DNA of 64,000 bases from Escherichia coli (GCF_030384885.1 NZ_CP128613.1), one strand, 5' to 3'. Shown: positions 8,330 through 54,031, numbered from the stretch's first letter. A program made the numbers and translations. The notes: a model not told the origin generated them from the sequence alone.

Positions 8330-11300
8330 TTACGCCTCCTCTTCATGACGAGCAAAGCGGCTTTTGGTCCACAATGCCAGGCGGTCGAACAGCAAATAAA
8401 TCACCGGCGTGGTAAACAGCGTCAGCACCTGGCTGACTATCAGACCGCCGACCATGCCGATACCTAACGGACGACGCAGTTCCGCGCCGACCCCGGTACT
8501 TAACATCAGCGGCAACGCGCCAAGCAGAGCCGCCAGAGTGGTCATCAGGATCGGACGAAAACGCAACAGACAGGCCTGGTAAATTGCATCGCGCGGCGAC
8601 ATGCCTTGCTCGCGCTCGGCAGCCAGCGCGAAGTCGATCATCATGATGGCGTTTTTCTTCACAATACCGATCAGCAAAATAATGCCGATGATGGCGATCA
8701 CATCCAGCTCACTTCCGGCAATCATTAGCGCCAGCAGTGCGCCAACACCTGCCGTTGGCAACGTCGAGAGAATGGTGATCGGGTGGATAAAGCTCTCGTA
8801 CAGAATGCCGAGCACGATATACATCGCCACCACCGCTGCGACAATCAGCCAGACAGTGCTGCCCAATGCCGACTGGAAGGCGAGGGTGCTGCCCTGGAAT
8901 TGTGTGGTGATATCCACCGGCAGATTCAGCGTCTTTTCGGTGTCCATAATCGCCTGCACCGCATCACCGAGAGAATAGTTATCCGGCACGTTAAAGGAGA
9001 TGGTCGTTACCGGGAACTGATCCAGATGGTTGATGGAGAGCGGCGCAAAACGCTGCTCAATTTTGGCAATTGAGCTTAGCGGCACCACGCCACCGTCGCT
9101 GCTGGTCAGGCGGATAGTATCCAGCGCCGCGAGGCCTGGGGTATTTTCGGTATTGTGCTCCAGCACCACGCGATACTGGTTAGCCTGAGTATAAATGGTG
9201 GAAATCAGTCGCTGACCAAACGCGTTGTACAGGGCGTTATCGACGTCCGCCATGCTGATCCCCAGACGGCTGGCGCTGTCGCGATCAACGTTGACATACG
9301 CCACCAGCCCTTGGTCCTGCCAGTCGCTGGAGACATCAGAAAGCTGTGGCAGCTGCTGGAGTTTTTCCACGAGTTGCGGCACCCAGGTGCTGAGCGCATC
9401 CAGCGATGTGGCCTGCAAGGTAAACTGGTACTGGGTGCGGCTGACCTGAGTATCGATAGTCAGATCCTGCGTTGGTTGAAGGAAGAGATCGACACCCGGC
9501 ACTTTATCTACTGCCGTTTGCAAACGGGCGATGACTTTTTGCACCCGATCATCACGTTCATCCAACGGTTTGAGGTTGATCTGTAAACGCGCACTGTTCA
9601 GCGACGGGTTAGTACCATCAACGCCAACAAATGAGGTCAGGCTTTGCACCGCCGGGTCCTGCAAAATCACATCAGCGACCTGACGTTGCCGCTGGGCCAT
9701 ATTGGCAAAGGAGCTGGATTGCGGTGCCTGCAAGGTGCCCTGAATAATGCCGTTGTCCTGTACCGGGAAGAAACCTTTCGGAATGAACACCCATAAGAGA
9801 ACGCTAAGCAGCAGCGTGCTGAGCGCTACGCTTAAAGTCAGCCACGGATGATTCAGCACTTTCGCCAGTCCACGACCATAGGCGGCAATTATCCTGTCGA
9901 ACATTTTTTCCGAGGCCCGGGAGAAGCGGTTCTGTTTACGCAGCGACTCCTGGCTGAGCATCCGCGCGCACATCATCGGTGTCAGGGTCAGCGACACCAC
10001 GGCTGAGATCAAAATCGCTACCGCCAGGGTAATGGCAAATTCGCGGAACAGTCGCCCGACGATATCGCCCATAAACAGCAGCGGGATCAGCACTGCAATC
10101 AGAGAGAAAGTCAGTGAGATAATGGTAAAACCGATTTCACCTGCGCCCTTGAGCGCCGCTGCCAGTGGTTTTTCGCCTTTTTCGATATAGCGGGAAATGT
10201 TTTCGATCACCACGATGGCGTCGTCGACAACGAATCCGGTGGCGATGGTTAACGCCATCAGCGTCAGGTTATTGATCGAAAAATCGAGAAACACCATGAC
10301 CGCGAAGGTGCCGATTAACGACAGCGGCACGGCGACGCCAGGAATGATGGTCGCCGGAATATTGCGCAGAAACAGGTAGATAATCATGACTACCAGCGCG
10401 ATAGCCATCATCAGTTCAAACTGGGTATCGTCGACTGATGCGCGGATATTGGTAGTGCGATCGGAAAGTACCGTCACTTTTACCGATTTCGGCAGACTCT
10501 CGGTAAGCTGTGGCAGCATCTGCCGAATGCTGTCGGCGGTAGAGATAATGTTAGCACCGGGCTGGCGCTGAACATTCATCACAATGGCCTGTTCTTTGTT
10601 CGCCCATGCGCCAAGCCAATTGTTTTCTGCGCCTTGTTCAACGGTTGCGACATCACCAAGACGAATCGGCGCGCCGTTCTGGTAGGCGATAATCAACTGG
10701 CGATATTCATCCGCAGATTGCATCTGGTCGTTCGCGGAAAGCGTGACCGCGCGGGAAGGGCCGTCGAGGCTACCTTTAGCCGAGTTAACGTTAGCGCCGG
10801 TAATGGCGGTGCGCACGGTTTCGCTGGTCAGGCCGAGGGCGGCAATCGCCTGGGCGTTAAGTTTGACGCGAACAGCCGGACGCTGACCGCCGGAAAGCGT
10901 CACCAGCCCGACGCCGGAAATCTGCGAGATCTTCTGCGCGACGCGGGTTTCCACCATATCTTCCACTTGGGTCATCGGCATGGCGGTTGAGGTGACGGCA
11001 AGCGTCATGATTGGCGGATCTGCCGGGTTCACTTTGCTGTAAACCGGCGGGTTAGGCAGATCGCTCGGCAACAAGTTGGTCGCAGCGTTAATCGCGGCCT
11101 GCACTTCCTGCTCGGCGACATCCAGCGGTAATGTTAGCTGGAACTGCAAAGTGATAACTGACGCGCCGCCGGAACTTTGCGACGACATCTGTTTCAGGCC
11201 GGACATCTGCCCGAACTGGCGTTCGAGCGGTGCGGTAACGGCAGAGGTCATGACATCCGGGCTGGCACCTGGGTAGAGGGTGACCACCTGAATGGTTGGA

Positions 11301-11452
11301 TAGTCCACTTCCGGCAGCGCCGAAACGGGCAGGGCACGATAACCGATAATCCCGGCGAGTAAGATCGCCACCATCAGCAGCGTAGTGGCGACAGGACGCA
11401 TAATAAACAGGCGCGACGGGCCGCCTGTGCTGCTCGGGGGTAACACCTGCAT
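8330..11452 (-). CDS. mdtB: RND multidrug efflux pump subunit MdtB
   Basis: 1040 aa RND-family ORF; stop overlaps the mdtA start and it abuts mdtC, typical of coupled mdtABC. Confidence 0.95.
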
Positions 11453-12699
11453 CAGGAGCGTGCTCCTTTTTTCGCGTATTCGCGGCTGGTGGCTTTCTCT
11501 TCCGAAGTGGTGGCGCTTTGAGCTTCAACCACTTCCACTTTCGCCCCTTCGGTCAGACGATCAATGCCATCCGTCACTACGCGGTCGCCTGCAGAAATAC
11601 CTGCGCGGATCACCACTTTCTGACTGTCCTGAATGCCCGGCGTCACCAGATGTTTGCTGACCTTGTTTTCGCTATTCAGCACCCAGACAAAATGGCCTTC
11701 GTTGCCCATTTGCAGGGCGGCGGTGGGGATCACCACGGCGTTTTGTTCGGTGTCGACTAACATGCGCGCGTTAACAAACTGATTGGGAAACAGCGCATCA
11801 TCCTGATTATTAAAGCGTGCTTTCACTTTAATCGTACCGGTAGTGGCATCGATTTGGTTATCGAGACTTAACAGCGTGCCTTCACTTAATTTCTTCGAGT
11901 TGGTGCGATCCCAGGCTTCAACAACCAGCGGTTTTCCGGCTTTTTGCGCCTGTACTACGGTAGCGATATCGCTTTCCGGCAGGGTAAAGAGCAAATCGAT
12001 AGGATGCGTCTGGGTGATCACCACAATCCCGGTGGTATCACCACTGGAGATTTGGTTACCAACATCAACCTGCTTGAGACCAACGCGACCATCGACTGGT
12101 GCGGTGATGCGGCTCCAGTCGAGTTGCAGCTGTGCGCTGGCGACGCTCGCTTCATCAGCCTTAATGGTACCTTCGGTTTCACTGACCAGCGCCTGTTGGG
12201 CATCCAATTCCTGACGGGAGACGAGATTGGTTTTTGCCAGTTGCTGATAACGCGCTAAATCACGGCGGGCGTTGGCTAGTGTGGCTTTATCTTTTGCCAG
12301 TTGCCCCTGAGCTTGTGCTAATGCAACTTTGAACTGGCTGGGGTCAATTTCTGCCAGTAAATCGCCTGCTTTGACCTGCTGACCCTCCTGGAAATGTAAT
12401 GCCATCAGTTGACCATCTACGCGACTGCGCACCGTAACGGTGTTAGCAGCGGTAATCGTACCAAGCCCGGTGAGGTAACGCGGAACCGCCTGTTCCACGG
12501 CAGTTGCTGCCTGAACCGGGGCCAATGGGCCGGAACGCATACCACGGCGGCCACCGGCTGGCGACTGCTGTGCTTGCTTCGTCGCACCTGGCGCTGCGCT
12601 CTGGGATTCATTGCGGCCTTGCCAGAACCAGAAAGCGGCGATGGCGGCGATAACCACCACGATTACGATTACCCAACGGGATTTATAACTGCCTTTCAT
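11452..12699 (-). CDS. mdtA: Membrane fusion (periplasmic adaptor) protein MdtA
   Basis: Track ORF 11452..12846(-) is 464 aa; start trimmed to the internal ATG at 12699 ([16 protein letters not shown]) to give the 415 aa K-12 length. HlyD/AcrA-like coiled-coil and barrel region. Confidence 0.9.
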
Positions 12700-12752
12700 C
12701 GTTAAGAGTTTCTCTTCCTGAAACGTTTCGCGGAATGATACTAGTGTAGCCA

Positions 12753-12771
12753 GCCAATAAGGGAGAAAAAT
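12753..12771 (-). promoter_or_regulatory. Candidate BaeR box upstream of mdtA
   Basis: Minus-strand sequence TTTTTCTCCCTTATTGGC about 55-70 nt upstream of the mdtA start resembles the BaeR consensus TTTTTCTCCATDATTGGC as recalled. Confidence 0.45.
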
Positions 12772-12929
12772 GGAGGAATTATGAAACACTGTCGGGAATC
12801 GTCTGAATGACGGGCACTTTTGCGAGCACGCATCCAGTAATAACACAGGAAACTATTTTATCTACGCGTTAGCGATAGACTGCATTCAGGGCAAAAGGAG
12901 GTAGGCCGACGATTTCAGCGGGACGCTGA

Positions 12930-13080
12930 AACGGGAAAGCCCCTCCCGAGGAAGGGGCCTTAAATAAGGAAAGGGTCATGATGAAGATACTCATCATCGT
13001 GGTGCTCTTAGTCGTTAGCTACCCAGCTTACTAAGACTACCAGGGCGGGGAAAACCCCGCTCTACCCTCACTCCTGAAAA
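12930..13080 (-). ncRNA. sibB: Sib-family antisense sRNA (antitoxin) fully overlapping the ibs ORF
   Basis: In K-12 each ibs is covered by a ~140-nt antisense Sib RNA. On the minus strand the hairpin GCCCCTTCCTCGGGAGGGGC followed by TTTCCCGTTT sits just upstream of the ibs start, consistent with a Sib terminator. Ends are approximate. Confidence 0.5.
12978..13034 (+). CDS. ibsB: Ibs-family type I toxin, 18 aa hydrophobic peptide (MMKILIIVVLLVVSYPAY)
   Basis: ATG ATG AAG start with SD-like AAGGAAAGGG upstream; peptide matches the Ibs pattern MMK-hydrophobic run-S-F/Y-P-A-Y. Symbol assigned only by synteny (copy nearest mdtA) and is uncertain. Confidence 0.7.
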   Translation: MMKILIIVVLLVVSYPAY

Positions 13081-13257
13081 TATGCCTTCACGGTCAGAAT
13101 GTCAATCCGCAGGCTTTGCAGTCTGCGATCCTGCCAGCAAATATTCTTTGCGAGTCGTTACGCAATAATCACAGATGAAACTATTTTATCTACGCGTTAG
13201 CGATAGACTGCATTCAGGGCGAAAGGAGGTAAGCCGATGATTTCAGCGGGACGCTGA

Positions 13258-13408
13258 AACGGGAAAGCCCCTCCCGAGGAAGGGGCCTTAAATAAGGAAA
13301 GGGTCATGATGAAGTGGATCATCATCGTGGTGCTCTTAGTCATTAGCTTACCGGCTTACTAAGACTACCAGGGCGGGGGAAACCCCGCTCAACCCTCACT
13401 CCTGAAAG
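13258..13408 (-). ncRNA. Sib-family antisense sRNA, middle copy
   Basis: Same hairpin plus T-tract arrangement as copy 1 (hairpin at 13267..13286); approximate ends. Confidence 0.45.
13306..13362 (+). CDS. Ibs-family type I toxin, 18 aa (MMKWIIIVVLLVISLPAY), middle copy
   Basis: Same architecture as the first copy within the second repeat unit; the peptide differs at a few positions. Confidence 0.65.
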   Translation: MMKWIIIVVLLVISLPAY

Positions 13409-13585
13409 TATGCCTTCACAATCAGATTGTCAATCCGCAGGCTTTGTAGTCTGCGATCCTGCCAGCAAATATTCTTTGCGAGACGTTACGCAATAATCAC
13501 ATGTGAAACTATTTTATCTGCAAGTTAGCGATAGACTGCTTGCATGGCGAAAGGAGGTAGGCCGCCGATTTCAGCGGGACGCTGA

Positions 13586-13736
13586 AACGGGAAAGCCCCT
13601 TCCGAGGAAGGGGCCTTAAATAAGGAAAGGGTCATGATGAAGCTACTCATCATCGTGGTGCTCTTAGTTATTAGCTGGCCAGCTTACTAAGACTACCAGG
13701 GCGGGGGAAACCCCGCTCTACCCTCACTCCTGAAGT
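13586..13736 (-). ncRNA. sibA: Sib-family antisense sRNA, third copy
   Basis: Hairpin GCCCCTTCCGAGGAAGGGGC at 13595..13614 with T-rich tail on the minus strand; approximate ends. Confidence 0.45.
13634..13690 (+). CDS. ibsA: Ibs-family type I toxin, 18 aa (MMKLLIIVVLLVISWPAY)
   Basis: Third repeat unit, same architecture. Symbol by synteny only (copy nearest yegL), uncertain. Confidence 0.65.
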   Translation: MMKLLIIVVLLVISWPAY

Positions 13737-13907
13737 TATGTTACTCCACCCTTATTGTCAATCTGTAAGTCCACGTTCTTGCGGGGCGAATAGCAAAACC
13801 CTCTGCGCTTATGGGCCGAATTCTGAAAGTTGCTTTGCCTGCTCTTATTTCATTATTGCAGTCGGTATGATACCGGACCTCAATAATTCTCTAAGAAAGG
13901 ATTTCTT

Positions 13908-14567
13908 ATGAGCGAACAAATCACGTTTGCCACCAGCGATTTTGCCAGTAACCCGGAACCACGTTGCCCCTGCATTTTGCTGTTGGATGTTTCTGGTTCG
14001 ATGAGTGGTAGACCTATTAATGAACTTAACGCCGGATTGGTTACCTTTCGCGATGAGCTGCTTGCCGATTCGCTGGCCTTAAAAAGAGTGGAACTCGGTA
14101 TTGTGACGTTCGGCCCGGTGCATGTGGAACAACCATTTACCAGCGCCGCTAATTTTTTCCCGCCCATCCTGTTTGCCCAGGGAGATACACCAATGGGGGC
14201 CGCCATTACCAAAGCCCTGAATATGGTTGAGGAGCGCAAACGTGAGTATCGCGCCAATGGTATTTCCTATTATCGTCCGTGGATTTTCATGATCACTGAT
14301 GGTGCACCAACCGATGAGTGGCAGGCTGCTGCCAACAAGGTGTTTCAGGGGGAAGAAGATAAGAAGTTTGCCTTCTTTTCCATCGGTGTTCAGGGGGCGG
14401 ATATGAAGACGCTGGCCCAAATCAGCGTTCGTCAGCCTTTGCCTCTTCAAGGATTACAATTCCGCGAACTGTTTAGCTGGTTATCCAGTTCGCTGCGTTC
14501 GGTTTCCCGCTCCACGCCGGGAACGGAAGTTGTACTGGAAGCGCCAAAAGGCTGGACGTCAGTGTGA
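13908..14567 (+). CDS. yegL: YegL, von Willebrand factor A (vWA) domain protein, TerY-like
   Basis: 219 aa; MIDAS motif DVSGSMSG near the N-terminus and downstream TDG; 4-bp overlap with yegK. Confidence 0.9.
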
Positions 14568-15325
14568 GCTGGCGTCTGGTCTATGCATCAGCCGTTGGAA
14601 CGTCGCACATCAGCGCTGACTTGTCTTGCCAGGATGCCTGCCAGATGCAGGTTGCCTGGCTAGAAGACCAGCAGCCATTATTGTCGGTATTTGTCGCTGA
14701 TGGCGCAGGCAGCGTCTCGCAGGGAGGCGAAGGTGCGAAGCTTGCCGTCAATGAAGCGATGGCTTATATATCGCAAAAAGTGCAGGGTGGGGAATTGGAG
14801 CTTAATGATGTCCTCGCCACGGATATTGTACTGACTATTCGTCAGCGACTTTTTGCCGAGGCAGAGGCCAAAGAATTAGCGGTTCGCGATTTTGCCTGCA
14901 CATTTCTGGGACTGATTTCATCGCCTAACGGCACATTGATTATGCAGATTGGCGATGGTGGCGTGGTCGTAGATTTGGGGCACGGTTTGCAATTGCCGCT
15001 CACGCCGATGGTGGGTGAATATGCCAACATGACGCATTTCATTACCGATGAAGATGCCGTTTCCAGACTGGAAATTTTCACCAGCACTGAGCGTGCGCAT
15101 AGAGTTGCAGCATTTACGGATGGTATTCAGAGACTGGCGTTAAATATGCTGGATAATTCTCCGCATGTGCCTTTCTTTACCCCGTTTTTCAATGGACTGG
15201 CGTCAGCAACGCAGGAACAACTCGATTTATTACCTGAATTGTTAAAGCAGTTTTTGTCCAGCCCAGCGGTAAACGAGCGTACCGATGATGATAAAACGTT
15301 AGCACTGGCTATGTGGACAGAATAA
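14564..15325 (+). CDS. yegK: YegK (PphC), PP2C-like Ser/Thr protein phosphatase
   Basis: 253 aa; PP2C-type metal-binding motifs VADGAGS and FTDG; translationally coupled to yegL. Confidence 0.88.
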
Positions 15326-29761: not shown

Positions 29762-29800
29762 CAGTGTATTGGTAGCTAAAAAGCCAGGGGCGGTAGCGTG
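29762..29800 (+). promoter_or_regulatory. JUMPstart element with ops (RfaH-dependent antitermination) in the wza leader
   Basis: CAGTGTATTGGTAGCTAAAAAGCCAGGGGCGGTAGCGTG contains the ops core GGCGGTAGCGTG about 180 nt upstream of wza. Confidence 0.85.
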
Positions 29801-44294: not shown

Positions 44295-44395
44295 TAGTTG
44301 AATAATCAACCGGAATAAATCTCCGGTAAATAACGACAAAAACAAAATTGGCCGTTTCGGTCAGGGCCAATTATTGCCTGAAAAAGGGTAACGAT

Positions 44396-53992: not shown

Positions 53993-54031
53993 TAGTGCAC
54001 TGGTAGCTGTTAAGCCAGGGGCGGTAGCGTG
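53993..54031 (+). promoter_or_regulatory. JUMPstart element with ops preceding the O-antigen cluster
   Basis: CTAGTGCACTGGTAGCTGTTAAGCCAGGGGCGGTAGCGTG, ops core GGCGGTAGCGTG, about 100 nt upstream of the first O-antigen gene. Confidence 0.85.

Follow-up and report, generated by a model that had tools for sequence, protein, structure and literature searches.

A tandem array of three predicted IbsB/SibB-type toxin-antitoxin modules between mdtA and yegL in Escherichia coli

In Escherichia coli K-12 the interval between mdtA and yegL holds two ibs/sib units: ibsB/sibB (b4668/b4437), encoding the 18-residue IbsB (MMKLLIIVVLLVISFPAY) and adjoining mdtA, and ibsA/sibA (b4667/b4436), encoding the 19-residue IbsA (MMKHVIILVILLVISFQAY) and adjoining yegL, a position that the A unit also occupies in O157 and most other strains. 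Seven Ibs genes have been reported for O157 Sakai versus five for K-12, and lineage-specific duplications have been discussed (Fozo et al., 2010; PMC2887945). The experimentally dissected member of the family is SibC/ibsC, which lies at fau-serA, encodes a 19-residue toxin and adopts the common family fold P1-P7, in which the P5 loop contains TRD1, and the single-stranded J1/7 segment facing the translation-initiation region contains TRD2; K-12 SibB and SibC differ at about 59 aligned positions. SibC starts with A at +1 and is NAD-capped, whereas the G-starting SibA and SibB are not (PMC12956327). The ldr/rdl and zor/orz systems, unrelated to ibs/sib in sequence, likewise combine a small hydrophobic toxin with an RNA antitoxin, repeated in one intergenic region with strain-variable copy number (PMC2887945; PMC11264685). 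Compared with their antitoxins, Sib stands out in that it spans the whole toxin ORF together with the translation-initiation region.

Here we describe the mdtA-yegL interval in a 64,000-nucleotide stretch of E. coli DNA (the window), which is 100% identical to strain 2013C-4282 (NZ_CP027579.1), from human stool. The locus resembles K-12 ibsB/sibB in its position next to mdtA, its 18-codon ORFs, its 136-nt Sibs starting with G, their fold and the promoter layout. It differs in that three B units, which vary in the toxin, TRD1 and the P6 loop, stand where K-12 has a single one; in TRD2 there is one difference from K-12 (TTTATGG against TTTAAGG). The ibsA/sibA unit is missing. The promoter and flank of unit 3 are of the SibA type. 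The same 328-bp unit occurs at this locus in O157 (B,B,A), strains 167 and JSWP006 (B,B,B,A), ST131/R12 (B,B) and XJ5.2 (B,B,B,B), where arrays are written from mdtA to yegL, and these arrays share with the window a limited repertoire of alleles at codons 4-5 and in TRD1. We consider it very probable that the array consists of three intact type I toxin-antitoxin modules in tandem, all belonging to the IbsB/SibB subtype and operating by the mechanism outlined below. The family, the locus, the tandem layout and the variation in copy number between strains have all been published or annotated before, and the rarities are limited to the all-B composition and a private unit-2 allele.

Three units and their predicted products

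Using Tandem Repeats Finder we detected a repeat at 12838-13734 with a period of 328 bp, 2.7 copies, 92% matches and a score of 1542, and alignment of the three repeat units with MAFFT gave a mean column identity of 92%. The units begin at 12838, 13166 and 13494, and the third ends at its own Sib -35 box. The three units of about 330 bp reported in the initial annotation are confirmed by these analyses, by three matches to the Rfam SIB_RNA family, by alignment with the five K-12 units and by the RefSeq annotation of 2013C-4282, in which three CDSs named "type I toxin-antitoxin system Ibs family toxin" occupy the mdtA-yegL interval. The downstream spacer of unit 3 diverges past approximately 13740 in the unit alignment and the rest is homologous; with an ORF, a Sib and a Sib promoter of its own, this unit is predicted to be functionally complete. 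The features of the locus are as follows.

11452..12699, minus strand: mdtA, left flanking gene
12838..13761, no strand assigned: whole array of three tandem ibs/sib units (Tandem Repeats Finder, unit alignment, Rfam)
12978..13034, plus strand: ibs ORF of unit 1, 18 residues, MMKILIIVVLLVVSYPAY, WP_100249771.1 (RefSeq, translation)
13306..13362, plus strand: ibs ORF of unit 2, 18 residues, MMKWIIIVVLLVISLPAY, WP_106907789.1 (RefSeq, translation)
13634..13690, plus strand: ibs ORF of unit 3, 18 residues, MMKLLIIVVLLVISWPAY, WP_100249772.1 (RefSeq, translation)
12934..13069, minus strand: predicted Sib RNA of unit 1, 136 nt, +1 = G (Rfam, K-12 sibB homology, fold)
13262..13397, minus strand: predicted Sib RNA of unit 2, 136 nt, +1 = G (Rfam, K-12 sibB homology, fold)
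13590..13725, minus strand: predicted Sib RNA of unit 3, 136 nt, +1 = G (Rfam, K-12 sibB homology, fold)
12934-13028, minus strand: parts of the unit 1 Sib, namely TRD1 at about 13006-13028, P6 loop at about 12985-12992, TRD2 at about 12959-12978, terminator hairpin with UUUCC at 12934-12961
13077..13105, minus strand: predicted Sib-1 promoter, TTGACA, 17-nt spacer, TATTTT, 7 nt to +1 (promoter scan)
13405..13433, minus strand: predicted Sib-2 promoter, TTGACA, 17-nt spacer, TACTTT (the K-12 sibB -10 box), 7 nt to +1
13733..13761, minus strand: predicted Sib-3 promoter, TTGACA, 17-nt spacer, TAACTT, 7 nt to +1
13908..14567, plus strand: yegL, right flanking gene, vWA-domain protein

The three peptides are exactly those given in the initial annotation, and each ORF is directly preceded by the Shine-Dalgarno sequence AAGGAAAGGG. 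They align with K-12 IbsB and vary among themselves at residues 4, 5, 13 (V/I/I) and 15, all exchanges being hydrophobic or aromatic; positions 4-5 and 15 had been recognized at the outset, and residue 13 had been overlooked. All three display the features that we took to define the Ibs family (18-19 hydrophobic residues, an N-terminal MM(K/R) with a basic residue 3, a central Leu and a C-terminal S-x-x-x-Y), and in the alignment with K-12 IbsA-E each carries K3 and L10. Alanine substitutions in Salmonella IbsA are inactivating at two positions only and are tolerated elsewhere (bioRxiv 10.1101/2025.05.26.656083). Since these two positions correspond to K3 and the central Leu, which every unit keeps, the three peptides have probably retained their toxicity.

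As for the subtype, each unit has an 18-residue peptide (with a helix one residue shorter), a 136-nt Sib starting with G and at least 90% identity to K-12 sibB, the properties by which we assigned units to IbsB/SibB. Compared with K-12 SibB, the window Sibs show 9-11 differences in 136 positions; compared with SibA, they show differences at 42-45 aligned positions. A unit orthologous to ibsA/sibA, sought as a 19-residue MMKHV... peptide with SibA sequence in the yegL-proximal position, is absent from the array, and all three ORFs are of the 18-residue B type. The comparison with both K-12 pairs that had been proposed initially thus upholds the units as ibs/sib modules and assigns all three to B, leaving ibsA/sibA without a counterpart here.

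The minus strand of the array matches the full Rfam model RF00113 (SIB_RNA) three times, with 137.3, 137.4 and 139.0 bits against a gathering score of 56 bits. With E values of 1e-29 to 5e-30, as compared to only 21-25 bits on the plus strand, these matches are far beyond chance, and the Rfam scan of the 64-kb window returned no Sib copies beyond the three of the array. The ends of the RNAs were transferred by alignment from the annotated K-12 sibB (NC_000913.3), which places a G at +1, as in K-12 SibA and SibB. The unit 1 Sib spans all of the ORF at 12978-13034 plus 44 nt upstream of it, and the offsets are equal in units 2 and 3. Minimum free energy folds of the three RNAs share one architecture of about -61 kcal/mol (z = -4.5 to -5.6), consisting of a P1 closing stem, a P2 hairpin, a P4/P5 hairpin whose loop region is TRD1, a P6 hairpin (AUGAUGA...UCAUCAU), the single-stranded CCUUAUUUAA, which is TRD2 and faces the Shine-Dalgarno sequence, and a terminator hairpin of 11 pairs with UUUCC after it. 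In the consensus fold of the window Sibs with K-12 SibA-E, eight of the 39 pairs show compensatory changes. The opposite-strand hairpin described initially is therefore present as the 11-pair stem in all three folds, terminating at the annotated K-12 sibB end, and the T-tract that accompanied it in that description is just UUU in the RNA, then CC. Because the U-tract is this short, a generic terminator scan called no Sib terminator in the array, and the terminator was located from the fold and the K-12 annotation.

A consensus scan of the plus strand yielded no promoter for ibs. At the position homologous to the ibsC promoter we found weak -10-like hexamers (GACGAT, GATGAT and GCCGAT). The mapped ibsC start site leaves an 18-nt 5' overhang past the Sib 3' end (PMC2943612), and by homology with it the ibs transcripts would start near 12916, 13244 and 13572 from these hexamers. 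For unit 1, the alignment with ibsC suggests that a weak candidate promoter may lie near 12883-12911, from which transcription would begin near 12916-12919. We also observed a second conserved hairpin, TTTCAGCG-GGA-CGCTGAAA, at 12911-12932 and at the equivalent positions in units 2 and 3 (+328 and +656), directly beyond the Sib 3' end. It coincides with the 5' end that we infer for the ibs mRNA, recurs in partly conserved form in the K-12 ibsC, ibsD and ibsE units, and could act as a stabilizing 5' stem of the ibs mRNA or as a back-up Sib terminator.

By homology with the K-12 systems, the plus strand of each unit would provide, through its Shine-Dalgarno sequence and 18-codon ORF, a hydrophobic Ibs peptide, and a near-consensus sigma-70 promoter on the minus strand would drive constitutive production of the 136-nt Sib, antisense to the ibs translation-initiation region and ORF. 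Contact with the ibs mRNA would be made by the TRD1 loop, opposite codons 10-17, and by the single-stranded TRD2, opposite the Shine-Dalgarno sequence and start codon; extension of the duplex would then block translation and lead to degradation of the mRNA. Any Ibs produced would be expected to insert into the inner membrane, collapsing membrane potential and ATP and arresting growth.

Further along the window, pphC (14564-15325, a PP2C phosphatase gene downstream of yegL) is a RefSeq pseudogene with an internal stop in 2013C-4282, and it is directly followed by yegJ (from about 15390, minus strand), the protein-kinase gene yegI being absent. In O157, R12 and AR_0089 yegI follows pphC, and the layout lacking yegI also occurs in 2020CK-00188, M160133, R32_14_1F, strain 789 and WCHEC035148. 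JUMPstart (ops) elements at 29762-29800 and 53993-54031 and an algC RNA motif at 44342-44391, all on the plus strand and above their Rfam gathering scores, would fit candidate colanic-acid and O-antigen gene clusters in that part of the window.

Specificity of repression within the array

The recognition domains described by Han et al. (2010) were mapped onto the window Sibs from SibC, in which TRD1 spans +46..+68 (ORF) and TRD2 +99..+115 (translation-initiation region). Either domain alone suffices for repression, and a 25-bp TRD2 match is by itself enough to redirect SibC to the non-cognate ibsD mRNA (Han et al., 2010; PMC2943612). In the array, four nucleotides of TRD1 (codons 12-16) differ in each pair of units, the P6 loop (codons 4-5) has four variable positions and the remaining Sib sequence three scattered ones. 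TRD2, by comparison, is free of mismatches among the three units, and non-cognate pairs share an uninterrupted identity of 41-52 nt across it. The identity of TRD2, taken together with the results of Han et al. (2010), leads us to predict that each Sib represses all three ibs mRNAs, so that the Sibs of the array would act as a mutual back-up. This prediction builds on SibC/SibD chimeras rather than on SibB-type RNAs, and the P6 loop, which TRD2 needs, varies here.

The opposite possibility is that the units have diverged to the point where each Sib represses its own ibs mRNA only. Such one-to-one specificity would be in agreement with the behavior of the K-12 Sibs, which repress only their cognate ibs mRNAs, apart from ibsA, and with the requirement of TRD2 activity for P6-loop sequence (Han et al., 2010; PMC2943612). 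The 4-nt differences that the units show in TRD1, and again in the P6 loop, also speak for it, as does the clustering of variable sites in precisely these two regions: when 26 distinct B-type units of 13 strains are compared, TRD1 and the P6 loop vary at 11 of their 31 positions and the remainder of the Sib at 7 of 105 (odds ratio 7.7; Fisher p = 2e-4, a value that is only indicative given that the units are related). However, the K-12 pairs reported to discriminate carry 3-11 mismatches in TRD2, and both TRD2 and its target are identical in all units of the array, with the 41-52 nt of unbroken identity noted above; in SibC, a 25-bp TRD2 match was already enough for repression of a non-cognate ibs mRNA. 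Strict one-to-one specificity is for these reasons unlikely. The initial annotation had further held that a continued match between every toxin and the antisense RNA of its own unit would be required; this matching is automatic in a cis-antisense pair, because both members are read from the same base pairs, and the claim is not sustained by TRD2 sequences that are the same in every unit.

Array composition and history across E. coli

Across the 5,426 complete E. coli genomes, mdtA-yegL arrays comprise from one to at least four units. In a sample of 60 evenly spaced records from 5,425 matching ones, one unit was found in three records, two in 25, three in 24 and four in seven, with no array match in one further record of the sample. 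The array classes were verified on fetched loci, and examples of each are listed below.

A: WCHEC035148
B + IS: A21
B,A: K-12
B,B: R12, AR_0089 (the same array as in ST131-labelled records), 10035004-3, 789
B,B,A: O157
B,B,B: 2013C-4282 and relatives
B,B,B,A: strain 167, JSWP006
B,B,B,B: XJ5.2

The sibA sequence is present in 4,492 of the 5,426 genomes, approximately 17% being without it. B-type Sib matches occur at 9,890 places in 5,336 genomes, with a median of two and a maximum of six; in a 60-row sample, 18 records had one such match, 29 had two, 11 had three and two had four. Three B units without A were found in nine records, at 96.7-100% identity, a search in which more diverged, lower-ranked records may be missed, and the other 59 sampled rows contained no B,B,B array lacking A. 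The 136-nt allele of unit 2 is private to 2013C-4282 among the 5,426 genomes (next best match 98.5%), while 197 records match unit 1 and 408 match unit 3 at 99% identity or more. As separate observations, XJ5.2 (NZ_CP074354.1) carries four B-type ibs units and no ibsA at 1919-2956, in an assembly that frameshifts in mdtA, mdtB and yegL suggest to be noisy, and one genome of the collection accounts for the six B-type Sib matches.

Three units at this locus are ordinary strain polymorphism, neither unusual for the species nor new, and the rarer feature is the B,B,B composition without ibsA/sibA. The initial annotation was right that K-12 has two units at this position, IbsB and IbsA, so that its copy-number point is valid relative to K-12, but its wording of copy-number expansion is not supported, given that three units are among the two commonest states (24/60, versus 25/60 with two) and are also found in O157. 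It is improbable that a two-unit array like that of K-12 has recently expanded in this lineage. This reading could appeal to the two units of K-12 and to the fact that most genomes lacking sibA have two B units (ST131, R12, strain 789), so that three could be a gain within that class, but the second unit of K-12 is IbsA, which is missing here. Moreover, unit 2 copies neither of its neighbors, being 93% identical to unit 1, showing 10 differences from unit 3 in the 136 positions of the Sib and having a TRD1 of its own; units 1-3 are 98% identical to the first three units of four-unit arrays; and nine genomes from varied hosts share a common three-unit haplotype with flanks 97-100% identical, which is neither recent nor private. 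That the repeats are decayed, non-functional relics is very improbable, as the weakness of the ibs promoter, or the failure of the consensus scan to find it, stands against start and stop codons, a Shine-Dalgarno sequence and a perfect -35 box at 17-nt spacing in all three units, a terminator hairpin and complete Sib fold kept in each, and Rfam scores equal to those of full-length family members.

Over units 1-3, the most similar array is that of strain 167, a four-unit B,B,B,A array, at 97.9% identity. Up to 13740, unit 3 agrees with its counterpart in strain 167 at 245 of 247 positions, and past this point it matches the sequence that comes after the ibsA unit in other strains, including the SibA-type promoter. 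Unit 3 therefore joins a B-type body, in register, to a promoter and flank of the SibA type, as unequal crossing-over involving a B unit and an A unit would be expected to produce. The same junction, free of indels, recurs in R12 and AR_0089, whose arrays have two units and lack A. More generally, the number of units very probably changes by unequal recombination among the 328-bp repeats, a mechanism supported by the existence of B,A, B,B,A, B,B,B,A, B,B, B,B,B,B and A arrays.

In contrast to the common flank haplotype of the nine B,B,B genomes, the flanks of K-12, O157 and R12-type (B,B) strains are only 94-95% identical to those of the B,B,B group. This divergence, seen at 11640-12837 and 13908-15300 (the 5' part of mdtA and yegL-pphC), is unusually high for E. 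coli core genes; it suggests a distinct haplotype of the locus, possibly tied to the nearby capsule/O-antigen recombination hotspot. Loss of A from a B,B,B,A parent and gain of a unit within the A-less class would both be compatible with the flank comparison.

Exchange between units may also have occurred on a smaller scale. The 4-nt codon 4-5 patch in the P6 loop has three main alleles (ATAC, TGGA and CTAC), which assort freely with the TRD1 alleles. Between 2013C-4282 and 2020CK-00188, whose arrays are 98.8% identical, the patches of units 1 and 2 (12987-12990 and 13315-13318) are swapped together with the linked sites 13051, 13063, 13221-13238 and 13391, while the TRD1 alleles have not moved. 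Such a mosaic pattern suggests gene conversion of short tracts between units of the array. We also considered the P6 loop as an invertible segment between its ATGATGA/TCATCAT arms, and rejected this because the alleles are not reverse complements. In 10 of the 11 multi-B arrays examined, every unit has a different patch allele. One may go further and picture the IbsB/SibB units as a set of recombining cassettes, in which gene conversion shuffles the P6-loop/codon 4-5 and TRD1/codon 12-16 patches, selection favors distinguishable units and the shared TRD2 serves as a mutual back-up. The swapped patches, the distinct alleles within arrays and the 7.7-fold enrichment of variable sites in TRD1 and the P6 loop would agree with it. 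We regard this picture as speculative and rather doubtful, and shared ancestry of the arrays together with the small sample could explain the pattern without selection.

Regarding the organism as a whole, K-12 is a poor reference at this locus, since half of the complete E. coli genomes have three or four units and approximately 17% lack ibsA/sibA. For the family, all-B arrays with identical TRD2 would offer a natural test of how much sequence difference Sibs need in order to discriminate between ibs mRNAs.
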